Assembly (NCBI GenBank): GCA_018242625.1
Contig: JAFEBO010000006.1
Coordinates: 241,132 to 281,131 of the forward strand
Length of the DNA: 40,000 nucleotides
Direction: 5' to 3'
From: Planctomycetota bacterium
Lineage (GTDB): Bacteria > Planctomycetota > Phycisphaerae > Phycisphaerales > UBA1924
A program made the position numbers and the translations under genes. Positions 19,189-35,560 of this stretch are shown here, piece by piece; within the stretch, counting starts at the first letter, position 1; each line of letters begins with the position of its first letter. Under the pieces are notes generated by a model. The model saw only the letters and a list, made by a program, of their open reading frames with translations. It did no database searches and had not been told where the DNA came from.

Positions 19189-20253
19189 TTACCGGTTCGG
19201 CCGCGTCGGAGCGCCCCGCCGGAATCCGCCGCCGCCCCCCGGCCCCCCGCGGAACCCCGGCCGCTCCAGCGTCCCGCCCGACTCGATCACCTGCCGCTCG
19301 TACCGCGCCTTCCCCGCCTTGTAATCCATCAGGAACAGCGCCTTCTCCGCCTTCTGCCCCGCAACTTCATACAGCCGCTTGCGCGCAAACATCAGGTCCG
19401 TCCGCCGCGAAACATGGCAGAGCACAAGCGCCTGACACTGCAGCACACCCAGCCACTCCGCCACATCATCCACGTGCATGTGCATGCCCACCTTCGCCCG
19501 CTCCTTGTGGTCGGGCTCAAAGAACGTGCACTCACAGATCACGATCTGCGCCGTCAGCACCTCCGGCCGCAGCAGCGCCGCGCACGGCTGCGTGTCCCCA
19601 AGGTACGCAAGCAGCGGAATCTCCAGCGTCCGCGTGATCTCGATCCCGCGGTCCTTCAGCTCCTTGAGCTTCTCCTGCGGCAGATCCACGTACTCCGGCT
19701 TCAGCTTGCTCCGCTTCTCGATCACCGCGTAGCCCATCGAAGGCGCCGTGTGCTCCGTGTAAAACCCGCGCAAAAAAATGTTGTTCTTGATCTCGACCTG
19801 ATCGTTCTCTTTCAGCTCGATCAGTTCGTACGGGGTCGTCTGCTGCTCCAGATCAATGAACCCCTCCATCATCCGCCGGATCGACGGCGCAATCCGCGCA
19901 TCGCACACGATCCGCGCATCACCCATCCCCTGGAACCGCCTCTGGCTGCTGTAATACGCCAGGCCCCCAACGTGATCCATGTGCCCGTGGCTGATCGCGC
20001 AGTACTTGCTCGCCAGCGCCGCACGCGGACACTGCCCCATGTCGAAGCACACATCCAACTCCGGAACCTGGATCGTCGTCACCTCGCCCGCGACAGAAAA
20101 TCCCTGCACGCGGTACGGCGGTATGAAATAGAAGCCCAGGGAGCCCTCACGGGGCGGCGGTTTCGGAATCATCCGGCAAATCTCCGTCAAGCGAAGGCCT
20201 TCGCCCTCGCCGGCTTGGTGCGCGGCGAACACCGCCACGCTCATCTCATCCAT
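19189..20253 (-). CDS. MBL-fold metallo-hydrolase (RNase Z-like) with RGG-rich tail
   Basis: It lies inside ORF 19189..20559. It has the HGHMDH metal motif (ISHGHMDHVGG). I take the ATG at 20253 (MDEMSV...) because it overlaps the ATPase stop as TAATG; MSVAVF or MIPKPPP are alternative starts. The C-terminus is GFRGGPGGGGGFRRGAPTRPNR. Confidence 0.75.
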   Translation of the reverse strand: MDEMSVAVFAAHQAGEGEGLRLTEICRMIPKPPPREGSLGFYFIPPYRVQGFSVAGEVTTIQVPELDVCFDMGQCPRAALASKYCAISHGHMDHVGGLAYYSSQRRFQGMGDARIVCDARIAPSIRRMMEGFIDLEQQTTPYELIELKENDQVEIKNNIFLRGFYTEHTAPSMGYAVIEKRSKLKPEYVDLPQEKLKELKDRGIEITRTLEIPLLAYLGDTQPCAALLRPEVLTAQIVICECTFFEPDHKERAKVGMHMHVDDVAEWLGVLQCQALVLCHVSRRTDLMFARKRLYEVAGQKAEKALFLMDYKAGKARYERQVIESGGTLERPGFRGGPGGGGGFRRGAPTRPNR

Positions 20254-23473: not shown

Positions 23474-23830
23474 TCACTCCCCCTCATACACACACCCGCA
23501 CTTGGCCGTTTCCCGTAATTCAATCCGGTACATCCCCGGCAGCCCCGGCCGAATCCGCTCCCACAACCACTTCGTGATCCGCTCCGCCGTCGGATTCTCC
23601 AGCCCCTTCACCTCATTCAGACACCGGTGATCCAACTCCTCCACCACCGGGTCCACAATCTTCCTCATCTCCGAAAAATCCATCACCCACCCGCTCCGCT
23701 CCCCAATCTCGCCCCTCACATACACCACAAACCGGTACGAATGCCCGTGCATCCGCGCACACTTATGCCCCGCCGGCACGTGCGGCAGCCAGTGCGCCGC
23801 TTCAAACCCAAACTCCCGAAAAAGCATCAT
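23474..23830 (-). CDS. queD: 6-carboxy-5,6,7,8-tetrahydropterin synthase (high-GC, resident copy)
   Basis: ORF 23474..23881. The likely start is at MMLFREFGFEAAH (23830). QueD hallmarks are present: FEAAHWLP, HKCARMHGHSY, GWVMDF, LDHRCLNE. The Gly-rich extension upstream of the start is probably not translated. Confidence 0.88.
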   Translation of the reverse strand: MMLFREFGFEAAHWLPHVPAGHKCARMHGHSYRFVVYVRGEIGERSGWVMDFSEMRKIVDPVVEELDHRCLNEVKGLENPTAERITKWLWERIRPGLPGMYRIELRETAKCGCVYEGE

Positions 23831-23880
23831 CCCCGATGCTAGAGCCCCTCCCCCGCCCCCCGAAACCCCGCCTCCCCACA

Positions 23881-23915
23881 AGTGCCCAGTGACCAGTGAC
23901 CAGCGCCCAGCGCCC
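23881..23915. repeat. heptanucleotide tandem repeat, 5 units
   Basis: AGTGCCC AGTGACC AGTGACC AGCGCCC AGCGCCC read directly from the sequence. It lies between the frameshifted gene end (23936) and the queD start (23830). Confidence 0.9.
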
Positions 23916-23935
23916 CCCTCTCCCCCCTTGCCCCT

Positions 23936-24609
23936 TTAGCTCTTTGCCCCTTTCCCCATCTCCCCCTTCAACTCCAACACCTCCACCGGACACCCCTTCC
24001 AGTCATCCTCCCAGCACACCACCAGATCACACCCACTCGGATCGTGATCAAACCGGCTGCTCACAAACTCAAACTCGATCCGCACCCGCCTCCACTCCCA
24101 TCCACCAGCCTCCGCCCCTCACAATCCGGATACCCCGTCCCCACCGACTCCACCTCAAACCCAAGCCCTCGCGCCATCGCTCCAAACAACAACACCACCC
24201 CCTGCTCATTCACAGGCTCCCGCACCATCACCGACCCCTCGAGCGGCAGCCCCAGCCGCCTCCCAAATCGCTCCCCCTTCGTACGCCACGTCACCGCCTC
24301 CAAATCCCGAAAACTCCCAAAGAACTCCCTCCACCGCGGCAGCCACCGATCACACTCCGCCCGCGTCGGCCTCCGGTTCACCAATATCAACAAATCCCAA
24401 TACCGCTCCAAAACCTCCCGCGCACCAGGCATCTCATGCCGCGCATCCACCTCCACCCGCCTCAGCCGCCCCAACACCTCCTCCCAACTCCCCACCCCAC
24501 CCCCATTCCCACCCCCAACCCCCCCAAGCACACGCCCCCACACCCGCCCCATCTCAGCGCGTGCGGCGTCCCCCCCGCCACTCTCCATTGGCATCAGTCC
24601 ACCCCCCAA
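23936..24609 (-). pseudogene. frameshifted PD-(D/E)xK-like nuclease-fold gene
   Basis: ORF 24061..24609 ends 20 codons after ...VVLLFGAMARGLGFEVESVGTGYPDCEGRRLV. The -1 frame continues directly with WEWRRVRIEFEFVSSRFDHDPSGCDLVVCWEDDWKGCPVEVLELKGEMGKGAKS and stops at 23936. The two halves together form one coherent nuclease-like core (PD...E.R...IEFE...CD.VVCW). The frame switch must lie within 24088-24118. Confidence 0.6.
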
Positions 24610-24772
24610 AAAAGCAAAAACGCGCCACCCCCAAAGCCCACCACAGCCTCAGCCCGCACCCAAATTGCAAGAACCCCCAACCACCCTCAGTTTACCACAA
24701 CTCCCAAAATTCCAACCCCCCATTTTCCATCCCAACCGAAACAAAAACCCCATTCCCCCTTCCTCAACCCCT

Positions 24773-24787
24773 GTCTGCCAGGCAGAC
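24773..24787. promoter_or_regulatory. perfect 15-nt palindrome upstream of the HNH gene
   Basis: GTCTGCC-A-GGCAGAC, about 80 nt upstream of the ATG at 24865. The 1-nt spacer is too tight for a hairpin, so a dimeric protein-binding site is more plausible. Confidence 0.3.
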
Positions 24788-24864
24788 GCAAAGCAACCTC
24801 TTTTCCCCGCATCCGTTACGCTCTCTCCGTGCCACGCTTCCACGAAATCATCTCGCACCAGACC

Positions 24865-25635
24865 ATGTGCCACAACGAGCAGATGTCTCTTCAGCGTGGG
24901 ATGAACTTCCGCGTCCGCGCCGGCAAAGCCGGCTACTCCATCTTCCTCATGAGCGTTCGCAAAGGAGCCCCCTATCAGGACCACTGGCATGACGAGGCCG
25001 CAGGCGGCCCTCACGCCGGCATGCTCGAGTACGAAGGCCACGACGCTCCGAAAAACGTGGCGCTCCGCTCCGACCCAAAGAAAATCGACCAGCCCCAATT
25101 CCTGCCGAGCGGCAAGCCAACCGACAACGGCAAGTTCTATCAGGCCGCCATGGCCGCCAAGGCCGGCGCCGTCCCCGAAGTCGTTCAGGTTTACGAAAAG
25201 ATCGCCGATGGCCGGTGGTGCGATCGGGGGCGGTATCTTCTCGTCGATGCCGAGATCAAGACTGTTCCCATTTCAACGACGAGCAAGAAGACCCGGAAGG
25301 TCTTCCGTTTCTTTTTGAAGCCGACTGTGACCCCCGCCGCCCGTACCCGCGAAGAAGAACGCGAACTCTCAATCTCACGCCAAATCCCCACCGCTATCAA
25401 AATCGCCGTCTGGAATCGCGACCGCGGCAAGTGCGTCCAGTGCGGCAGCACCGACAACCTTCACTTCGATCATGACGTGCCACACTCCAAGGGCGGCTCC
25501 AGCTTCACCGAAGCCAACGTCAAGATCCTCTGTGCCCGCCACAATCTCGAAAAGTCGGACAAGATTCTGTCACTTGGCCCACTGCTCGGGCCACTGGTGG
25601 TTGCGGCGACGGCGTCGATGCTACGAGGAGCATAA
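24865..25635 (+). CDS. HNH endonuclease with N-terminal SRA/PUA-like putative modified-base-reader domain (type IV restriction-like)
   Basis: This is the 3' part of ORF 23896..25635; the Pro-rich 5' part is an antisense shadow. Candidate starts are 24865, 24883 and 24901. The C-terminus is a classic HNH: CVQCGSTDNLHFDHDVPHSKGG...NVKILCARHNLEKSDK. The N-terminal roughly 170 aa (GYSIFLMSVRKGAPYQDHWHDEAAG..MLEYEGHD...DQ...PEVVQVYEKIADGRWCDRGRYLLVD) follows the order of SRA/YDG-type domains as I remember them. The domain call is from memory, not from a search. Confidence 0.7.
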   Translation: MCHNEQMSLQRGMNFRVRAGKAGYSIFLMSVRKGAPYQDHWHDEAAGGPHAGMLEYEGHDAPKNVALRSDPKKIDQPQFLPSGKPTDNGKFYQAAMAAKAGAVPEVVQVYEKIADGRWCDRGRYLLVDAEIKTVPISTTSKKTRKVFRFFLKPTVTPAARTREEERELSISRQIPTAIKIAVWNRDRGKCVQCGSTDNLHFDHDVPHSKGGSSFTEANVKILCARHNLEKSDKILSLGPLLGPLVVAATASMLRGA

Positions 25636-25654
25636 ACCGCCGCAACGCCTGGCA

Positions 25655-25683
25655 TTCCAAACGATTCGGTGGCCTGGTATAGT
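25655..25683 (+). promoter_or_regulatory. sigma70-like promoter candidate for the DpdA-like operon
   Basis: TTCCAA (25655-25660), a 17-nt spacer, then TATAGT (25678-25683), 18 nt upstream of the ATG at 25701. It would give a very short leader. Promoter rules in this lineage are uncertain. Confidence 0.3.
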
Positions 25684-25700
25684 GATATCTTTGGGCGCAA

Positions 25701-27413
25701 ATGCGAAAACTGCTTGTACTAGGCTGCTCTTCCACCAAGCGCGACACGCACAACAAGCTGCCCGCGGTTGATCTTTACGATGGGCCGTTTTATCGCGTCC
25801 TTCGCACATTTCTACGAGATCACTTGTGGCCACAAGACTTATCAGTCGCGGTTTTGTCTGCTGAGTACGGACTGATGGGCGGCTTGACTCACATTCAAAC
25901 CTATGACCGCGTGATGACAAAGGAACGCGCCGTTCAGCTATCTGGTGATGTACGCCACACCCTTTTAGGCTGGCGGGACTGTCACTCGAGCATTCAATTA
26001 GTGCTCGGCGAAACGTACTTGGGCGCTATTCAACCAGCTGCAAATGAGCTTTGGCGACGAAGCGTCGATCTTGCAGCGGGTCCAATAGGGATGAAGCTGC
26101 AGTATTTGCACAATGCGCTTCATCGCGGCGCAAAGAAGGCCCCTCGATGCCGAGACGATGTGCCCAGCGCAGACGGACGCCCGATGTACTTCCTTCCGGA
26201 CTGGGATGACTTTGTCGATACGAATTTTGATTTTGTTCGAGACAAGTTTTCATGCAGTGCTCGGGCCGATCGAGATGAAACCCACTGTTCGGCGCTGGTA
26301 AAGCCAAAGCGGTTAGCAGATGGGATTCTGGTGAGCCTTGCCCAGAGCTTTGGGGGGAAGGGGCTGCTGAGAGCCCTCCAGGCGAGTTCGCCAGACTCTC
26401 TTGCACCCAAGCCTGTAAAACGGCATTTTGGGTTAGCGGATGACCAGTGGGCTTTCGGAGACTGCGGCGCCTTTAGTTATGTGAACGAAGAATCCCCGAC
26501 CATTTCGGTTGAGCAGGCTGTCGCTACCTACGAGTTGTACGGGTTTGATCTCGGCGCAAGCGTAGATCACATCCCGGTTCCCGAGGTCGTTAGAAAGGGA
26601 AAGCGCGTAACACTGACAGACGCGGAGCGTCGCAAGCGGGTAGCGCTCACTCGATCGAACGCGCAAGATTTTTTGGACTTGTGGCGCAGGCGCGAGTGCC
26701 GCTTTAACCCAGTGGGAATCGTTCAAGCCCTATCGCCTAGACAATTCGCCTCGTCGGTCGCTGAATACGCTGAAATGGGGTATCGCAGAATCGCGCTTGG
26801 TGGCCTAGTTCCCAGGTCCGACGACGAAATCTTGGCCATTGTGACCGCTGTGTGTAAGAAGATGAGCAGCCTTCGCCAGCGTCCCTGGCTTCACCTAATG
26901 GGCATTTATCGTCCAAACTTGCAAGCGGCGTTTCGTCGATTGCGCGTCGACAGCTTTGATAGCGCCACGTACTTTCGAAAAGCTTGGCTGCGGTCGGATC
27001 AAAACTATCTCGGGGCAACGGGCAATTGGTACGCAGCAATCCGGGTTCCGCCATCCCACGATCCTCGCACAGCGAAGCGCCTCGCCTCCACTGGTGTTTC
27101 GCTTTCAAAGATCCAGCGACTTGAAGCGGCGGCCCTTCAGGCCCTGCGCGCATATGCCGGAAGACGAATTGGAATAGAACGATGCCTCAAGTGCGTCCTC
27201 CACTACGATCTGTTGTTGCCACGTGGCGAGACAGACGCCAAGTCCATGGAAGAGGCCTATCGACGCACGCTTTCTGATCGGCCCTGGGAATTGTGCGAAT
27301 GCCCTATTTGCAAGAAAGTAGGAATTGACGTACTGATCTTCCGCGGGCTCAACCGCAACAAGCGTCGTGGGGCGCACAACACCCTTATGCTGTACAACAC
27401 TATTGCGCGATAA
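25701..27413 (+). CDS. DUF6884-like N-terminal domain fused to a TGT-fold transglycosylase (DpdA-like, putative DNA 7-deazaguanine transglycosylase)
   Basis: 570 aa. C-terminal TGT-fold landmarks occur in the expected order: FGDCGAFSY (cf. DSGGFQ), RIALGGLVPRSDDE (cf. AIGGLxVGE), LHLMGIYRP (cf. LMGVGxP), VDSFDSATYFRKA (cf. FDCVxPTRxA). The zinc site is CECPIC...GAHN (CxCxxC...H). The N-terminal roughly 150 aa, LLVLGCSSTKRD...PAVDLYDGPFY...VAVLSAEYGLMGG...IQTYDRVMT, matches the pattern I recall for DUF6884. Confidence 0.8.
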   Translation: MRKLLVLGCSSTKRDTHNKLPAVDLYDGPFYRVLRTFLRDHLWPQDLSVAVLSAEYGLMGGLTHIQTYDRVMTKERAVQLSGDVRHTLLGWRDCHSSIQLVLGETYLGAIQPAANELWRRSVDLAAGPIGMKLQYLHNALHRGAKKAPRCRDDVPSADGRPMYFLPDWDDFVDTNFDFVRDKFSCSARADRDETHCSALVKPKRLADGILVSLAQSFGGKGLLRALQASSPDSLAPKPVKRHFGLADDQWAFGDCGAFSYVNEESPTISVEQAVATYELYGFDLGASVDHIPVPEVVRKGKRVTLTDAERRKRVALTRSNAQDFLDLWRRRECRFNPVGIVQALSPRQFASSVAEYAEMGYRRIALGGLVPRSDDEILAIVTAVCKKMSSLRQRPWLHLMGIYRPNLQAAFRRLRVDSFDSATYFRKAWLRSDQNYLGATGNWYAAIRVPPSHDPRTAKRLASTGVSLSKIQRLEAAALQALRAYAGRRIGIERCLKCVLHYDLLLPRGETDAKSMEEAYRRTLSDRPWELCECPICKKVGIDVLIFRGLNRNKRRGAHNTLMLYNTIAR

Positions 27414-27454
27414 AATTGCGTCTGCTTCCGATTGCGACGAGGTGGCGAGAAATC

Positions 27455-29887
27455 ATGCTGATAGAACCGGCAGATTTTGTTGGACGCTTGCAGGCCTCAA
27501 TACCACTCCAATTCGGCGCGAGACCGCCGAATCCGCGCCAGTTGGAATGTATTGAAGCACCCTTACAGGCGCCTTTGTTTATCGTCGCCGGTCCGGGAAC
27601 TGGCAAAACGACAGTGTTGGTGCTGCGGGCTCTTCGCATGGTTTTTGTGGAAGGCCTATTGCCCGAGCAGTTGCTGATTACGACCTTTACCCGAAAGGCG
27701 GCTGAAGAGTTGCGATCGCGGCTGCTCACTTGGGGAATGCAACTTCAAGAAAGTCTTGTGGCTCAGCCCCCTGCTCATTGGCAAGCTCAACACCGGGTGC
27801 GTTCAAACGCATTGGACTTGAATCGATTTGTAACTGGCACCCTTGATAGCGTTTGTGAGGACCTTCTTTCTCGAGCTCGCGAACCTGGAGAAATCACGCC
27901 AGCACTAATCGATGGATTTGTTGCGGACGCGCTTTTGTTGAGACACGCCGTCTATCCGTCTGGCGCTTATGCTGATGGTGCCATCGACCCTGATTTGGCC
28001 GCATATCTCGCCCAATTTAATTGGCAACAAGAAGCACCGACCAATGTCGGCGAATTGGTCAAACTGGTGCGGCTGGTAAGCGATCGGCTTACTCATGATT
28101 TGGCAGACGTAACACACTTTGCTGGAAGCTCCGCCCATTCCAACGCAAGACACAGGCTGGCGGATGTTCACGACCGCTATCGCCGGCATCTAGCGGCAGA
28201 ATATCGGCTGGATTTCTCCACACTTGAGCACACTTTTTTTACCAGGTTGGCGGCGGGTCGCCTGGATCGTGTACTTCACGGAATCGCTGCTGTGTTGGTA
28301 GATGAATACCAAGACACGAATCCCCTGCAAGAGCAAATCTACTTCACGCTCGCCGACCGCCTCGGTGCATCGCTCACCATCGTGGGCGACGACGATCAAT
28401 CACTCTACCGTTTTCGAGGCGCCACGGTGGAAATTTTTCGAGACTTCGTCGCGCGATGGACTGCAGCAGGGGGTGCAACACCCTCTGTCAAATTTCTCAT
28501 AGACAACTATCGCTCTACCCCAGAGATTGTTGCGTTTTTTAATGACTTTATCGAGAGCGATCCATCCTTTGCCGGTGCTCGTGTTACACCTCCCAAACCG
28601 AGAATTGTTCCACAGAGATCAAGCGTGCAGTTGCCCGTATTTGGGCTATTTCGACCGACTCGAGAGGATTTGGCGGACGCGATTTGTGGTATCGTCCGCG
28701 ATGTATTTCGCGGTAACGGTCATCGGGTGGTAGCAAATGGTCAAACCTATTTGATAGAGCGTGCCGCGTCCGGTGGAGATGTCGGCGACTCCGTGCTCCT
28801 CTCTCACTCTGTGGAGGAGTTTAAAGAGACAAGAGGGCAAACCCCGCCGGAAGCCAGACTTCCCGCGCTCCTTCGAGTACGACTTGGGCCGACCATAAAT
28901 GTTTACAACCCGCGAGGCAGATCGCTTCGCGATGTACCGGAGGTTCAACAACTCCTGGGACTCATGCTTGAGTGTATTGACCCCGATCAACCGAATGGGG
29001 CGGCGGGCGGGATCCAAGCCTCAATGAGGTTGCGTCGGGATTCACAAAGATACCTGCCAATCTGGCGTGACGCCGCAAGAGCATTGATCGCCACCAACCC
29101 CGAACCGCGATCACCCCATCGGCTTAGAGATTTTGTGGACGGCTGGCAACGACGAGTGCCGCAATCTGCAGCCGTGGGAGCTTGGCCACAGGAATGGCCT
29201 GCGCTTGATCTATTCTTTAAGCTCCTCGTGTGGCTTCCTGAATTGCGGGCGAGCCCAGAGGGGCAGGTATATTTGGAAGCGGTCGCCCGCGCAATTGCAG
29301 CTTCGGCAACGGTTTCAAATTATCGTTCGATGATCGTTTTTGGACAGACCCCCCACGGACAACAGAGCGTCAGCTCGTTCATTTCTTCGGTACTGCAGCC
29401 CCTCGCGGAATCGGCGGTGGATATTGACGAAGAGGTCATGCCGGATGTGCCCCGGTCGGCGTTTCCGATCATGACGATACACCAAGCCAAGGGCTTGGAG
29501 TTTCCACTCGTCTTTGTTGACGTTGGATCGGACTATAAAAGAGAACACCCACTGAATCGCTTTAAGCGACATCCAACTCAGCCAGATGGTGTACATAACT
29601 TAGAAGACGACCTGGCTCATTGCACCCCCGTCGGCGCTTCTCGCACCAGCCGCGACGGAATTACTCGCGCGTTTGACGACCTGCGAAGACTTTATTACGT
29701 GGCATACAGCAGGCCGGAGACGGTGTTAATTCTCGTTGGGCTGAACAAGTGTCTGGAAGTCGCCCGACCGCTCCCGCATGTTGCGACTTGGTACCGGCAG
29801 GATGGCTCCTGGGCGTGGCTTTTGCAGCCACCTGGTCAACGCAGGCGACCCGCGATGCCCAATTCACTCCCACTCACATTGATATAG
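27455..29887 (+). CDS. UvrD/PcrA-type SF1 DNA helicase
   Basis: ORF 27416..29887 has a TTG at 27416, but an ATG at 27455 follows GAGGTGG. The SF1 motifs are: I AGPGTGKTT, Ia TFTRKAAEEL, II VLVDEYQDTNPLQ, III TIVGDDDQSLYRFRGA, IV NYRSTPEIV, V TIHQAKGLEFPLVFV, VI RRLYYVAYSRPETVLIL. Confidence 0.92.
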   Translation: MLIEPADFVGRLQASIPLQFGARPPNPRQLECIEAPLQAPLFIVAGPGTGKTTVLVLRALRMVFVEGLLPEQLLITTFTRKAAEELRSRLLTWGMQLQESLVAQPPAHWQAQHRVRSNALDLNRFVTGTLDSVCEDLLSRAREPGEITPALIDGFVADALLLRHAVYPSGAYADGAIDPDLAAYLAQFNWQQEAPTNVGELVKLVRLVSDRLTHDLADVTHFAGSSAHSNARHRLADVHDRYRRHLAAEYRLDFSTLEHTFFTRLAAGRLDRVLHGIAAVLVDEYQDTNPLQEQIYFTLADRLGASLTIVGDDDQSLYRFRGATVEIFRDFVARWTAAGGATPSVKFLIDNYRSTPEIVAFFNDFIESDPSFAGARVTPPKPRIVPQRSSVQLPVFGLFRPTREDLADAICGIVRDVFRGNGHRVVANGQTYLIERAASGGDVGDSVLLSHSVEEFKETRGQTPPEARLPALLRVRLGPTINVYNPRGRSLRDVPEVQQLLGLMLECIDPDQPNGAAGGIQASMRLRRDSQRYLPIWRDAARALIATNPEPRSPHRLRDFVDGWQRRVPQSAAVGAWPQEWPALDLFFKLLVWLPELRASPEGQVYLEAVARAIAASATVSNYRSMIVFGQTPHGQQSVSSFISSVLQPLAESAVDIDEEVMPDVPRSAFPIMTIHQAKGLEFPLVFVDVGSDYKREHPLNRFKRHPTQPDGVHNLEDDLAHCTPVGASRTSRDGITRAFDDLRRLYYVAYSRPETVLILVGLNKCLEVARPLPHVATWYRQDGSWAWLLQPPGQRRRPAMPNSLPLTLI

Positions 29888-29895
29888 GGAATTCC

Positions 29896-31077
29896 ATGCC
29901 CATCGGAAATCGACGATTGCCATTGGTCCTGCCCCGCTACAGCTTGACGGGCGATCTTCTTTCTTTTCGGCGTTGCCCCCTTCAATACCGGTATTTGAAC
30001 GGAAGCAAGCTCCCGCCTTCCAGGCCCGTTCAGCTCTGGTTTGGCGAGTTTATTCATGGCGTTCTTGAGATGTCGTATCGCATCTGGCGGGATACTACTC
30101 CCAGGCTCTCTTTTCCTTGGCCTGAACATCGAGCGGACTGGCGCGCAGAGCCCGATCCAACATGGGCAACACATGATATTGGGCGGATTGGCTATTCAGT
30201 CGAACAGGCATTGCGAGCACAAGGAAAGAGTTCCCGCGATAGGGACGCTCGTGAAGCGGCTTATCGACGAGCGTTTAGGGCGGTGAACGACATCGGGCCG
30301 CATCTTTTTCCACTCGTAGTTGCGGCAGAGGAAAAAATCATTGGTACGAGGCTGGTTGGCGGCGGACCAACTCAGGGTCGTACCGACCGATACGAATTGC
30401 ACGGCATTGTTGACGTGCTTACAAGTCTCACCCTTGGGATGGTGGATCGTTCAAATCTCATCCGCACGGCGATACAAGATGTTACGTCCGGGCTCAACGG
30501 CAATTACGAGGTCATCGTCGACTATAAGGGTGCGCGGCGGCCCGACTTGGCGGATCCAGATCGACCATATTGGCAACAGGGCGAATGGCAGGTGCTTACC
30601 TACGCATGGCTGCGCGGGCGTCAACCCGGTGCAATTCCTGTTGCTGCGGGCGTTCTGCTTTACATTAACGAACTCTCTCCGGGCCAGGACGATATCGCGG
30701 CAATGAAGCGGGCGCTTAGTTCCAACAATTCAGACGTGCTTCCAGCGCAAGGAACTGCGGATTGGTATGCACTGACAAACTGGAGACCTGGACTTCAAAT
30801 CCCCGCGCTAACGGACGAGTTTCGATTCAAACGAACCATTCGCGTTGTTCCTGTAGACCAGAGTCGGGTTAATGCTGCGCTGTCTGCATTTGACTCTGTT
30901 GTGAACGAGATTGAGCAGTGCGTCACTAGCGAACTGGTCGCGGGTACGATCGAACGACAATGGTCGCCGTGTGGGGACGAAGAAACCTGTAACGCATGCG
31001 ACTGTCGGTATTTTTGCCCTCATCCGGCTCCTCGCGGCCCTTCCTTGCGTCCCGTGGAGGCTCCGCATGCGCCTTAG
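29896..31077 (+). CDS. Cas4/AddB-like PD-(D/E)xK nuclease with C-terminal Fe-S cysteine cluster
   Basis: It lies inside ORF 29749..31077. The ATG at 29896 sits 8 nt after the helicase stop and follows AGGGA. The motifs are an N-terminal Cys (SFRRCPLQYRY), FGEFIHGVLE, GIVDVL, VIVDYKG (D-x-K), QVLTYAWL (QxxxY) and a C-terminal CNACDCRYFC (C-x2-C-x5-C). Confidence 0.85.
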   Translation: MPIGNRRLPLVLPRYSLTGDLLSFRRCPLQYRYLNGSKLPPSRPVQLWFGEFIHGVLEMSYRIWRDTTPRLSFPWPEHRADWRAEPDPTWATHDIGRIGYSVEQALRAQGKSSRDRDAREAAYRRAFRAVNDIGPHLFPLVVAAEEKIIGTRLVGGGPTQGRTDRYELHGIVDVLTSLTLGMVDRSNLIRTAIQDVTSGLNGNYEVIVDYKGARRPDLADPDRPYWQQGEWQVLTYAWLRGRQPGAIPVAAGVLLYINELSPGQDDIAAMKRALSSNNSDVLPAQGTADWYALTNWRPGLQIPALTDEFRFKRTIRVVPVDQSRVNAALSAFDSVVNEIEQCVTSELVAGTIERQWSPCGDEETCNACDCRYFCPHPAPRGPSLRPVEAPHAP

Positions 31078-31102
31078 TTCGTCCATCTTCTAATGCGCGA
31101 CG

Positions 31103-31492
31103 CTATGAACTGGTCTCTTGGTCTTCTCCCCGATAGATGCAGCCGCATTTGGAGGTTTCAAAAAGCTCGAGCTTGCAGAGTCCGGGCATCGACGGCTTCA
31201 GTCGCGACCAAATCCAGCGAGCGATGACCTCGGCTGTCGGCACAGCTAGGCCTTCTATTTCGTTTAAATACTGATGATCCAGTTGGTCCACCACGGGGTC
31301 CACGTTGCGTCGAATCTCTGCAAAATCCATCACCCAGCCTGTGCTGCAATTGATTTGGCCACGGACGTGAACAACGAGTCGGTACGAGTGTCCGTGCAAC
31401 CGCGCGCACTTGTGTTCGGGCGGCACATTTGAAAGTCGATGTGCGGCTTCAAACCGAAACTCTCGAAATACAACCATGCCTCCATTGTACAT
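31103..31492 (-). CDS. queD: 6-carboxy-5,6,7,8-tetrahydropterin synthase (low-GC, island-borne second copy)
   Basis: ORF 31103..31534. The start is ambiguous: ATG at 31492 (MYNGGMVVF) or 31477 (MVVFREF). QueD hallmarks are FEAAHRL, HKCARLHGHSY, GWVMDF, LDHQYLNE. By hand ungapped alignment, 72 of 117 positions are identical to the copy at 23474-23830. Confidence 0.88.
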   Translation of the reverse strand: MYNGGMVVFREFRFEAAHRLSNVPPEHKCARLHGHSYRLVVHVRGQINCSTGWVMDFAEIRRNVDPVVDQLDHQYLNEIEGLAVPTAEVIARWIWSRLKPSMPGLCKLELFETSKCGCIYRGEDQETSS

Positions 31493-31553
31493 CCGCATGT
31501 TCTGCAACTTTTTCCGGGCCCTTTTCCAACGCACTCCCTGCTCGCAACCAGCG

Positions 31554-32162
31554 TCATCTGGTCGCGGCCAGAATCCTTATCCTCTCCCGCGGCAATCGCG
31601 CCGCCCCCACAAACGTCACCTCCTGCACCTCCGCCGCCGAAAACTCGCACGCCCCCGGCGGCAGGAACGTCCCGGCCCCCCTCGGCGATTTTCTGCCACC
31701 GCTGCACCTCGGCGCCCCGGAATTGAACCGGCAGAACTGCACGCCCGGATTCAGAGCCAACATCGCCTCGGTCTCCACCACCAACACCTTGCAGTCTTCC
31801 CCCGCATAACGCGCAAAGTGGTTGCGCCCCGCCACGATCGGCCCGCGCTCGTCTCCCGGCCAGAAGAACACTCTTTCATTGAGCAACTCAATCACGTCTT
31901 CGAAGCTCGTCCCCGGCTCCATCTCCATATTGCCGGCATGAAGCGGCGCCTGATCGCGCACATGCACCACCCGCTCACCGATCCGCAGCGTCAGGTGTTG
32001 CTTGCGCTTTTGTCGTAAGTAGGAAGTGTCCGCCGCCCGCTCCATCAGCACGCGCGCAGACTCTAGCAGTCCACCCTCCAGAATCGCGTCAACATTTGCC
32101 GCCGCCGTCAAATGAAAAAGCCGCGGCCGCCGCACTGCAAATTGCCAAAGGTCGATTCCCAT
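31554..32162 (-). CDS. hypothetical protein, possible DarT-like (DUF4433-like) ADP-ribosyltransferase fold
   Basis: 202 aa, with GAGAAGG upstream of the ATG. LFHLTAAANVDAILEGGLL, then LRQKRK, FFWPG, FCRFNSGAP and a late AAEVQEVTF parallel the H-x-T / R / N / E-containing segments of DarT as I recall them. This is weak, by-eye similarity only. Confidence 0.55.
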   Translation of the reverse strand: MGIDLWQFAVRRPRLFHLTAAANVDAILEGGLLESARVLMERAADTSYLRQKRKQHLTLRIGERVVHVRDQAPLHAGNMEMEPGTSFEDVIELLNERVFFWPGDERGPIVAGRNHFARYAGEDCKVLVVETEAMLALNPGVQFCRFNSGAPRCSGGRKSPRGAGTFLPPGACEFSAAEVQEVTFVGAARLPRERIRILAATR

Positions 32163-32513: not shown

Positions 32514-32698
32514 AAAAGTTCCTCACCCCTCCACTCTCTCATATTCCCCCCGCTCTCACCTCTGCCACCCCCTGCTATTCTGCCAACCCACACCCCCCGC
32601 GCCTTCTCCCCCATCAAGCCCTCTGAAAATTTGACGCTTTGGCCCTTTCCCCGACTCTTCTCCCCATTTGGCGCTTTAGAAATTTGGCCCTTTCCCCC

Positions 32699-33975: not shown

Positions 33976-34422
33976 TCACCCCCGCGTTGATTTGAACTTC
34001 AACGTCCGATTGATCGGATGTTCTCCCAGATACACCCCCACCTGCTTCATCATCGCCTTCGGCAGCACCCGCACCTTCCCCGCCTGCCCCCACTCCATCC
34101 ATCGAAACTCTAGGTGCTTCTCCCGCGCCTTGATCCGCTCCGGCGCGCGCACTTCAAACACAAACGAGTACTCATGCCGCGACTTCCCCTTCTGCACGAA
34201 CCTGTTCTCATGCACCAGGACTAGCCGCCCCACCCCCACCGCCTTCCCCGTCTCCTCCAAAAACTCCCGCCTAAGCGCCCTCTCCGCCGACTCCCCCGGC
34301 TCCACATGCCCCCCCGGCAAATACCAATAGTCCGCCCCCCTGTTCCGACACAACAAAATCTGCCCCTCCCGCAGACAAATCCCCCTTGCCAACACCTCAA
34401 TTTCTTTCACTCGCTTCGCCAT
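33976..34422 (-). CDS. NUDIX hydrolase
   Basis: 148 aa. The Nudix box GGHVEPGESAERALRREFLEETG fits GX5EX7REUXEEXGU. Confidence 0.9.
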   Translation of the reverse strand: MAKRVKEIEVLARGICLREGQILLCRNRGADYWYLPGGHVEPGESAERALRREFLEETGKAVGVGRLVLVHENRFVQKGKSRHEYSFVFEVRAPERIKAREKHLEFRWMEWGQAGKVRVLPKAMMKQVGVYLGEHPINRTLKFKSTRG

Positions 34423-34618: not shown

Positions 34619-35560
34619 ATGGCGGATGTTGTTGCTGGGTCGGACAAGGTGCGGAAGTTGGGGCGCGGGTTGTCGGCGCTTTTGCAGACGCCGGTGCGGG
34701 TGGACTTGCCGGGGAAGGTTGGGGGTGAGGTGAGTGTGGTGGCGGAGGTGGTGGGGGGAGGGGGGCTCGAGATGGTGGAGGTGGGGGCGATCAGCCCTAG
34801 CCGGTTTCAGGCGCGGCGGGTGTTTGATGAGGCGACGCTGAAGGGGTTGGCGGAGTCGATTCGGCGGGATGGGGTGATGCAGCCGGTTATTTTACGTCCT
34901 ATAACCGGTGGGTTTGAGTTGGTGGCGGGGGAGCGGCGGTGGCGGGCGGCGAAGATGGCGGGGCTGGCGCGGGTGCCGGCGATTGTGCGGGAGATGAGTG
35001 ATGAGCAGTCGGCGGAGTGGGGGCTGGTTGAGAACGTGCAGCGGGAGGACTTGAACCCGATGGATCGGGCGACGGGATTGAGGATGATGCAGGAACGGTT
35101 TGGGCTGACGCACGGGCAGATTGCGGAGCGTGTGGGGCTGGAGCGTGCGACGGTGACGAACCTGGTGCGGCTGACGGAATTGGAGGATGAGATTGCGGAG
35201 CTGCTGGCGGGCGGCGCGTTGACGAGTGCGCACGGGAAGTCGCTGCTGGCTGCCGCGCCGGGCGCGGGGCGTGTGGCGCTTGCGAAGCGTGCGCATGCGG
35301 AGTCGTGGAGCGTGCGCCGGCTTGATGCGGCGATCGCGGCGGGCGTGCGCGAGATTGAGGCGCGGGAGAAGAAGGAGACGATTCGCGGCGATGGTGGGGG
35401 GCGGAGCGCGATTGTGCTTGATCTTGAGCGCAGGCTCTCGCAGCAGCTTGGGACGAAGGTTGAGATCTCGATGAAGAATTCGAAGAAGGGGACGATCATC
35501 ATCGAGTTTTACGGGCTTGATCACTTTGATGGCCTGGCGGCGAAGATGGGTCTGAAGTAA
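34619..35560 (+). CDS. parB: ParB/Spo0J chromosome partitioning protein
   Basis: It lies inside ORF 34532..35560. The ATG at 34619 follows AAGGAGG. It has KLGRGLSALL, the ParB box GERRWRAAKMAGL, an HTH (GLTHGQIAERVGLERATVTNLVRL), and a C-terminal dimerisation segment (GTIIIEFYGLDHFDGL). No parA is adjacent. Confidence 0.92.
   Translation: MADVVAGSDKVRKLGRGLSALLQTPVRVDLPGKVGGEVSVVAEVVGGGGLEMVEVGAISPSRFQARRVFDEATLKGLAESIRRDGVMQPVILRPITGGFELVAGERRWRAAKMAGLARVPAIVREMSDEQSAEWGLVENVQREDLNPMDRATGLRMMQERFGLTHGQIAERVGLERATVTNLVRLTELEDEIAELLAGGALTSAHGKSLLAAAPGAGRVALAKRAHAESWSVRRLDAAIAAGVREIEAREKKETIRGDGGGRSAIVLDLERRLSQQLGTKVEISMKNSKKGTIIIEFYGLDHFDGLAAKMGLK

Follow-up and report, generated by a model that had tools for sequence, protein, structure and literature searches.

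A stretch of 40,000 nucleotides of contig JAFEBO010000006.1 from a Planctomycetota bacterium (called the window here) was analyzed with regard to a cassette of four genes, namely a fusion of a DUF6884 domain with a DpdA-type DNA-guanine transglycosylase (gene 1), a UvrD-like helicase (gene 2), an AddB-like nuclease (gene 3) and a paralogue of queD (gene 4). On the whole we lean towards reading this cassette, from sequence comparison, as a compact, restriction-modification-like variant of the Dpd 7-deazaguanine DNA-modification and defence system that does without DpdB. The reading is drawn from the identity of the DpdA, the homology of its N-terminal domain to DpdC, the conservation of the partner genes, the linkage to genes for 7-cyano-7-deazaguanine (preQ0), the absence of DpdB and DpdD and a context of mobility and defence. 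The cassette occurs widely and has yet to be characterised; its gene 1 belongs to the Dpd family. To our knowledge, studies of bacterial 7-deazaguanine DNA-modification systems have dealt with a single one, the 11-gene Dpd cluster of Salmonella, the restriction half of which is not understood.

Gene 1 is predicted to encode a bacterial DpdA of orthologue grade, in which both the active site and the zinc site are intact. It matched the NCBIfam DpdA equivalog NF041059 with 346.1 bits (cutoff 200) and the PADLOC DpdA model with an E-value of 7.6e-99, whereas the tRNA models TgtA (22.9 bits, cutoff 350) and tgt_general (20 bits, cutoff 47.6) remained far below their cutoffs and the Pfam TGT match was weak (30.7 bits). 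The structure of DpdA from S. Montevideo (PDB 7UI4) could be aligned across its full length (E 2e-70). In that enzyme Asp95 acts as general acid/base and Asp256 as nucleophile, with Asp130 in the active site as well (PMC10164549); in the alignment Asp95, Asp130 and Asp256 correspond to D254, D289 and D420 of gene 1. All three do not vary in the family, D254 (in GDCGAF) and D420 (in SFDS) being invariant among 23 members. The zinc ligands C532/C534/C537/H559, a CxCxxC...H arrangement of the TGT type, are likewise invariant and align to CECNIC...H of 7UI4. An earlier note on this DNA had taken the TGT-fold protein for a DpdA and not for Tgt or ArcTGT, and the NCBIfam scores rule out the latter identity. 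We infer that gene 1 would place preQ0 into DNA and not into tRNA.

The same note had remarked on an extra N-terminal domain preceding the TGT fold, which proved to be DUF6884 (Pfam 39.5 bits, cutoff 30; the match to YaaA was weak) with the motifs CxxxK (C9..K13) and LSAxxG (L52-S53-A54..G57). Its further statement that no gene resembles DpdC was wrong at the superfamily level: in hhalign the profile of the N-terminal domain aligned to a DpdC profile with a probability of 91% (E 1.1e-6), the alignment covering 140 columns and showing motifs common to both. The core of DpdC is characterised by a DUF6884/YaaA-like fold with LYxG and LSAxxG motifs. Canonical DpdC has itself been placed in the DUF6884 superfamily (PMC11888242), under the name DUF328 in another study (PMC12839542), and a weak DUF6884 match was obtained for the verified DpdC that a dpd plasmid of Enterobacter encodes. 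The N-terminal domain is therefore a distant homologue of DpdC within the DpdC/YaaA superfamily. Its best PADLOC DpdC match reached 21.5 bits (E 3e-5) over 59 residues, compared with 470 bits for canonical DpdC, and with about 150 amino acids it has half the length of DpdC (~280-310 amino acids) and does not count as a full-length DpdC. Separate DUF6884 and DpdA genes, overlapping by 4 nt, were seen on a 4.3 kb contig of a Planctomycetota metagenome-assembled genome (L072), which may represent an unfused precursor arrangement of the fusion; its neighbours, judged by eye, are QueE-like, lytic-transglycosylase-like and VRR-NUC-like, a phage-like context.

Genes 2 and 3, whose motifs are intact, are a co-inherited pair resembling a miniature AddAB. 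Gene 2 matched Pfam UvrD-helicase (E 4.9e-44) and UvrD_C; its best NCBIfam matches were AddA and PcrA, both far below their cutoffs (addA_Gpos 130 bits, cutoff 708), and its PDB matches comprised UvrD, PcrA, AddA and GajB. The motor motifs Walker A GPGTGKT, DEYQD, GDDDQSLYRFRGA and QAKGLEF were found, and there is no nuclease domain. Gene 3 matched Pfam PDDEXK_1 (E 2.4e-12), and C27, C365, C368, C374, D173, D209-x-K211 and Q232-xxx-Y236 are invariant across 32 homologues. A sequence search of gene 3 against the PDB gave no match; an AlphaFold2 model (predicted local distance difference test, pLDDT, 73.6) was closest in Foldseek to AddB of AddAB (4ceh_B, E 6.7e-6), followed by the Argonaute-associated Cas4-family protein ACE1. 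The earlier calls of a UvrD helicase and an Fe-S PD-(D/E)xK nuclease were thus borne out by hidden Markov models (HMMs) and by the invariant cysteine and catalytic residues, and HMM searches confirmed the remaining domains named at that time as well (DUF6884 and TGT/DpdA, PTPS/QueD). Identification of gene 3 as Cas4 was rejected (TIGR00372 20.5 bits, cutoff 65); a search of 22.5-33.5 kb showed no repeat array, and the gene calls in the surroundings of the cassette include no cas genes. Gabija was rejected too, as none of the eight scanned proteins matched GajA and the PADLOC GajB matches of gene 2 (E 4.5e-31) reflect generic UvrD similarity.

The nuclease gene also varies between closely related assemblies. 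Over 21.7 kb the window and the sister assembly GCA_046350515.1, a metagenome-assembled genome of Phycisphaerales (contig JAXMAH010000001.1), differ in a single base, at window position 30823, by which codon 310 reads CGA (Arg) in the window and in SRR23459710 and TGA (stop) in GCA_046350515.1 and SRR26348422. The stop allele, R310*, occurs in one of three read-set assemblies and removes the three C-terminal Fe-S cysteines, NCBI annotating a protein of 309 amino acids. It fits a loss of restriction with modification retained, which is a tolerated route in restriction-modification systems.

Relatives of the fusion number more than 1,300 at 90% clustering, nearly all of them 570-600 amino acids long. 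A scan in which each GTDB species was represented by one genome yielded 67 related loci, 65 of them with a full-length fusion, and partners were counted by de novo clustering of open reading frames (ORFs) around these 65. The fusion loci span at least 17 phyla (Planctomycetota, Acidobacteriota, Chloroflexota, Latescibacterota, Nitrospirota, Bacillota, Actinomycetota, Pseudomonadota, Armatimonadota, Spirochaetota, Bacteroidota, Verrucomicrobiota, Gemmatimonadota, Elusimicrobiota, Sumerlaeota, Desulfobacterota and Binatia). A UvrD-type helicase lies near the fusion at 58 of the 65 loci and an AddB-like nuclease at 57, mostly immediately downstream on the same strand and often with overlapping start and stop codons, so that the neighbourhood on which the earlier note had built its proposal is indeed conserved. 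A neighbourhood produced by chance was rejected, as dozens of genomes from phylogenetically distant lineages share the gene order. At seven loci a HerA-like ATPase and a protein of about 640 amino acids are inserted between fusion and helicase, and at four loci this pair replaces helicase and nuclease; altogether, a gene for a motor driven by nucleoside triphosphates (NTP) adjoins the fusion at 62 of the 65 loci. HerA was assigned by PADLOC (E 3.5e-85; loci L010, L013, L025, L027, L034, L038, L039, L046, L064 and L070, e.g. L034:11604-15365), and its ~640-amino-acid partner has neither a Pfam nor a PADLOC match. A conserved protein of 315 amino acids, also without a Pfam or PADLOC match, flanks the cassette at 11-13 loci (e.g. 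L005:8954-9907, L009:8915-9862, L012, L069) and does not occur in the window; possibly it serves as a fourth accessory component.

The canonical partners of DpdA were searched for in the same loci. With three DpdB/DndB queries tblastn returned nothing in the window, in L001-L076 or in L082; no cassette protein matched DndB/DGQHR, and the parB gene at 34.6 kb is the chromosomal partition gene. Queries with DpdC and DpdD found nothing at any fusion locus, and queries with DpdD, DpdI, DpdJ and DpdK found nothing in the window. DpdJ- and DpdK-like genes lie about 7 kb from the cassette at L076, and weaker DpdJ-like matches occur at L021 and L071, in no case adjoining it. The claim that DpdB and DpdD-K are missing from the window was accordingly upheld, with DpdJ/K-like genes at just three related loci.

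A link of the cassette to preQ0 supply is given by QueD and, elsewhere, by QueC and YhhQ. The cassette queD is well supported by its domain matches (PTPS E 9e-37; TIGR03367 QueD 104.9 bits, cutoff 89) and is one of two queD genes in the window, with 62% amino acid identity between them and a G+C content at third codon positions (GC3) of 0.58 in the cassette copy and 0.78 in the host copy. QueD homologues flank the cassette at 10-13 related loci, depending on the method, QueC lies near the fusion at 12 of 65 and YhhQ/Vut_1, of the preQ0 transporter family, at 8 of 65. The description of this queD as private to the system had to be abandoned: it is an optional accessory, present at about one locus in five to six, and is typical of canonical dpd islands too, 78% of which contain PTPS (PMC11888242).

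In base composition the block 25636-31553 stands apart: its G+C is 55.1%, whereas the DNA on the left has 65.3% and that on the right 64.1%. GC3 amounts to 0.53-0.58 in fusion, helicase, nuclease and cassette queD, compared with 0.75-0.86 in the flanking genes (MoxR, host queD, HNH, DUF7002, ABC, NUDIX and ParB). A compositionally foreign block had been proposed before, correctly as to low G+C and GC3, but with a start at 24.61 kb; since the HNH and DUF7002 genes show a host-like GC3 of 0.75, the foreign block begins at about 25.64 kb. For the helicase 54.8% G+C was computed in place of the claimed value of about 48%, and the reported distances were reproduced (41 nt and 8 nt between the three genes on the + strand, 25 nt from the nuclease stop to the end of the queD copy on the opposite strand, 65 nt from the end of the HNH gene to the start of gene 1). 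The cassette is a horizontally acquired, mobile four-gene unit of about 5.9 kb (25.64-31.55 kb; Table 1). Among the related loci its G+C (~0.50-0.58) lies below that of the flanks in 28 of 31 evaluable cases, which argues for a mobile unit; in Phycisphaera CP098402 it is flanked by two integrase genes, and in another genome it adjoins BrxR and TIR genes. Nothing clearly att-like was found at the borders in the window, where the repeats at 23.9 and 32.6 kb are weak, C-rich and of low complexity; there is no tRNA gene at the borders, and no integrase was identified in the gene calls surrounding the cassette. Recombination of one queD copy with the other was considered as the way of insertion and found unsupported, the DNA repeat being just 70% identical over 128 nt. 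Scans for promoters and terminators were uninformative.

Table 1. Positions in the window of the cassette genes, of the domains predicted in gene 1 and of neighbouring genes.
Feature	Position	Strand	Remarks
Gene 1, DUF6884-DpdA fusion	25701-27413	+	570 aa
DUF6884 (DpdC-superfamily) N-terminal domain of gene 1	residues ~1-150, 25701-26150	+	Pfam DUF6884
DpdA DNA-guanine transglycosylase domain of gene 1 (predicted)	residues ~160-568, 26178-27404	+	NF041059, 7UI4
Gene 2, UvrD/PcrA/AddA-like superfamily 1A (SF1A) helicase	27455-29887	+	810 aa
Gene 3, AddB/Cas4-like RecB-family PD-(D/E)xK nuclease with 4-Cys Fe-S site	29896-31077	+	393 aa
Gene 4, cassette queD paralogue (6-carboxytetrahydropterin synthase, preQ0 pathway)	31103-31477	-	converges on nuclease gene
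HNH gene, neighbour outside cassette	24865-25635	+	predicted SRA-like + HNH
DUF7002 gene, neighbour outside cassette	31554-32162	-	E 3.5e-27
Host-like queD	23474-23830	-	GC3 0.78

Helicase and nuclease diverge in parallel (Spearman 0.91), which suggests an obligate pair, and their divergence is hardly correlated with that of the fusion (rho ~0.10). At least three deep helicase-nuclease subtypes are combined with a fairly uniform fusion family, and the subtype of the window is also found beside a fusion with just 39% identity, as well as beside a long DpdC-DpdA fusion of about 718 amino acids accompanied by HerA, a second TGT paralogue and DEAD helicases. Such shuffling relative to the fusion is as expected for exchangeable modification and effector modules. 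In Leptolyngbya sp. GGD (L085, JAPQKE010000007.1) the UvrD and nuclease pair, with a nuclease 51% identical to gene 3, is located inside an otherwise canonical dpd cluster with DndB/DpdB, DpdD, PLDc_2 (PLD/DpdK) and a DpdJ-like DEAD helicase of 1526 amino acids; no DpdA was detectable within 9 kb there, and a transposase fragment lies nearby. Among 2,335 published dpdAB islands UvrD-helicase occurs in 63 and PDDEXK_1 in 59 (~2.5%; supplement of PMC11888242). Because the pair also stands beside other DpdA types, in a canonical cluster and in dpdAB islands, it is a general Dpd-associated module, which becomes the dominant partner where DpdB is absent.

Proteins labelled 'DpdA' of about 690-720 amino acids with a longer DpdC-like N-terminal extension were observed at four further loci, on plasmids of Allocoleopsis (L078), Paenibacillus (L079) and Nostoc (L081) and at L086. 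A second, short TGT paralogue accompanies them at L079, L081 and L086, and several of the four loci carry DEAD/DEAH helicases or a DndB-like gene, the RefSeq label being just DpdA. These clusters look like a further undescribed Dpd architecture.

As to function, the fusion would exchange guanine for preQ0 at specific sites of the host chromosome, and its N-terminal domain would either hydrate the nitrile to dADG (the 7-amido derivative of 7-deaza-2'-deoxyguanosine), as DpdC does, or else aid in binding or flipping the target base. In QueF and nitrilases an active-site cysteine attacks the nitrile, and by analogy the conserved cysteine of CxxxK might do the same. The energy input that is given by the DpdB ATPase in the canonical system would come from the ATP-driven helicase or, at some loci, from the alternative HerA module. 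Helicase and nuclease together would processively degrade unmarked DNA, e.g. of phages or plasmids, and a two-module restriction-modification logic would thereby take the place of DpdD-K; that the pair serves as the defence effector is what we infer here. Beyond this, it might tentatively be proposed that a mini-AddAB-like helicase-nuclease travels along DNA and degrades it unless the 7-deazaguanine mark is met, the mark telling this processive nuclease 'self' in the manner of Chi and not blocking a site-specific endonuclease, in a widespread, self-contained, DpdB-free system of two modules with dADG or the deoxynucleoside of preQ0 (dPreQ0) as the mark and HerA as an interchangeable part, a possibility to which we assign a clearly minor weight.

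Chief among the rivals is the view that helicase and nuclease serve modification only or are coupled to repair, which appears rather unlikely to us. The helicase or HerA would then replace DpdB, and the nuclease would clear nicks, abasic sites or DNA-protein adducts, leaving an epigenetic or protective mark and no restriction. Canonical DpdA activity requires the DpdB ATPase (PMC10164549), which is absent from all fusion loci, and the NTP-driven motor that adjoins the fusion at 62 of the 65 loci would suit such a substitution; YfjM, a member of DUF6884, has been tied to abasic or RNA-base lesions (PMC11701544), and the nonsense allele of the nuclease appears to be tolerated. However, a nuclease with invariant catalytic residues is retained as tightly as the helicase, beyond the need for a helper ATPase, the pair co-occurs with DpdB in Leptolyngbya, the alternative modules are motor-containing pairs too (HerA with the ~640-amino-acid protein), and the cassette is met in defence islands and mobile elements.

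A different direction of the chemistry has also to be considered, in which the fusion would remove or exchange damaged guanines or the 7-deazaguanine of phages and helicase and nuclease would degrade or repair the product, similar to Type IV restriction or base excision instead of self-marking. Base exchange of the TGT type is reversible in principle, which speaks for such a role, as do the ties of DUF6884 and YaaA to lesion binding and oxidative stress. Moreover, defence proteins are now known that act as glycosylases on the 7-deazaguanine DNA of phages (bioRxiv 10.1101/2025.10.29.685425). Nevertheless, the linkage to QueC, QueD and YhhQ indicates that preQ0 is consumed as a substrate and hence argues for writing rather than erasing, and the DpdA domain scores as an equivalog of the modifying enzyme, whose catalytic residues it shares, so that this role is improbable. 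Still less credit can be given to a phage or prophage anti-restriction remnant resembling phage 9g, with helicase and nuclease as replication or recombination genes. In phage 9g the dG+ genes do adjoin those for a Cas4-like exonuclease and a helicase (PMC5567051), the composition of the cassette is foreign, and the DUF6884 gene and dpdA of L072 lie on a phage-like contig; yet the fusion was found in one of 2.9 million viral contigs, 50,697 phage genomes contained no homologue of the nuclease and one distant match to DpdA, and neither here nor in the long chromosomal loci is the cassette bordered by phage genes for structure or replication. The distribution of the cassette is bacterial, not viral. 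Finally, a tRNA Tgt placed by chance next to unrelated repair genes, to which the weak Pfam TGT match taken alone might have led, is refuted by the DpdA score (346 bits against 23 for TgtA and 20 for the general TGT model), by the full-length alignment to 7UI4 and by a gene order kept across at least 17 phyla.

Several observations weigh against a DpdB-less restriction-modification system. Three of the 65 loci have neither the helicase-nuclease nor the HerA module within 10 kb. The pair in Leptolyngbya is neither a needed substitute for DpdB nor the only effector there. Since the N-terminal domain is short and closer to stand-alone DUF6884 proteins of 140-260 amino acids than to DpdC, DpdC-like chemistry is uncertain. 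R310* is an isolated case and might represent an assembly variant. In addition, queC, queE and folE were not seen in the 40-kb window, and preQ0 supply by the host is assumed.

Upstream of the cassette lies the HNH gene, which the earlier note had counted as part of the system with an SRA-like domain. The guess at the fold is reasonable as far as a model goes: with a moderate pLDDT of 65, the best Foldseek matches of the predicted structure were MspJI, ScoMcrA and TagI (E 6e-5 to 1.5e-4, TM-scores ~0.3). The Pfam HNH match was marginal (21.0 bits, cutoff 21.4), SAD_SRA was not matched in Pfam, and in the HNH region Cys, His, Asp and Asn are invariant across 30 homologues. Membership in the system did not hold, as tblastn found a homologue at none of the 67 related loci, GC3 is host-like and the family, large and highly conserved with 2,887 matches of which the best 120 show 60-100% identity, occurs in unrelated contexts. 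In a relative (L083) the same interval between queD and the ABC transporter contains an HNH gene with a Multi_ubiq/ThiF (ubiquitin-like/E1) pair in place of the DpdA cassette; this interval has the look of a variable hotspot for defence genes, with the cassette as an insertion. On the other side, DUF7002 was likewise rejected as a component (not co-conserved across the 67 loci, GC3 0.75); its protein shows a weak PADLOC match to DarT (E 0.007).

Elsewhere in the window, the region 23880-24860 is C-rich, strongly skewed and of low complexity with short repeats of the type GCCCCTTT, weakly similar copies of which occur at 32614-32697. A doubtful ORF was noted on the - strand at 24061-24609, of which the NCBI annotation keeps just 77 amino acids, and a gene of the metallo-beta-lactamase fold at 19189-20172 (-) has a weak precomputed match to the Anti-Pycsar Apyc1 family. 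Near 34.4 kb, between NUDIX (33976-34422, -) and parB (34619-35560, +), a GC skew of about -0.5 turns into one of +0.4 and the genes change orientation at the same point, the skew of the cassette being near zero. An oriC at this site was rejected, for no cluster of DnaA boxes was present (two near-matches in 40 kb, three expected), and the flip probably reflects gene-strand bias and not an origin.

With PADLOC-DB v2 HMMs the DpdA domain alone was recognised, apart from generic similarity to GajB and Cas4. The published dpd survey required dpdB, so that a DpdB-less family was left out by design (PMC11888242). Full-text literature searches retrieved no paper on a system of DUF6884-DpdA, UvrD and nuclease, an earlier mention being possible. 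That the architecture is not a described system, as had been supposed, is correct insofar as neither a catalogued system nor a dedicated paper was found, but the co-occurrence had been remarked upon in passing in 2017, when Cas4-like nucleases with a helicase were listed, as 'data not shown', among the commonest nucleases beside tgt genes (PMC5567051). Current annotation and defence-finder rules label the fusion plainly as 'DpdA' and miss the system. If our reading is true, the cassette would offer a minimal version with three proteins, present in at least 17 phyla, which shows DpdA working without DpdB, and a tractable way to ask how a nuclease senses 7-deazaguanine in DNA; it would also provide a first functional context for the large DUF6884 family and bring a helicase-nuclease module into the set of defence effectors that are coupled to DNA marks other than methyl groups.

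Among known systems, the canonical Dpd cluster of Salmonella Montevideo (dpdA-dpdK) shares with the cassette a DpdA of equivalog grade with its catalytic Asp residues and zinc site, a DpdC-superfamily domain linked in the order dpdC, then dpdA, an additional queD and horizontal mobility. It differs in size (~20 kb against four genes in ~5.9 kb) and in its partners, as the cassette lacks the ParB/DndB-like ATPase DpdB, a full-length DpdC and DpdD-K and carries instead the UvrD helicase and AddB-like nuclease or a HerA-containing pair. The DpdA of phages (9g/CAjan; DpdA1-4) is a TGT-fold enzyme that writes 7-deazaguanines into DNA as well, whereas the enzyme of the window belongs to the bacterial DpdA clade and the phage systems serve anti-restriction, not host defence. 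BREX-related capture (BRC) systems contain a predicted TGT module without DpdB, for which another NTPase was proposed as a substitute, but they comprise PglZ, a BrxC-like protein, a STAND NTPase, HerA/FtsK and GNAT, and no DUF6884 fusion, UvrD or AddB-like nuclease has been described in them (Nucleic Acids Res 2026, PMC12839542). Gabija (GajA/GajB), Hachiman and Nhi resemble the cassette as defence systems of an SF1 or SF2 helicase with a nuclease, yet they have no DNA-modification partner. The likeness to Type IV enzymes of SRA-HNH type (TagI, ScoMcrA; the SRA-like domain of MspJI) is one of predicted fold and concerns the neighbouring HNH gene only. With AddAB/RecBCD (B. subtilis AddAB, PDB 4CEH) the cassette has in common a UvrD-family SF1A motor and a RecB-family nuclease with a 4-Cys Fe-S staple. 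However, AddA, a helicase joined to a nuclease, and AddB, an inactive helicase-like domain joined to a nuclease, are much larger (~1200 and ~1150 amino acids, against 810 and 393), the cassette helicase has no nuclease domain and the cassette nuclease no helicase-like domain, and AddAB is a housekeeping repair operon, whereas the pair in the cassette is linked specifically to DpdA genes.

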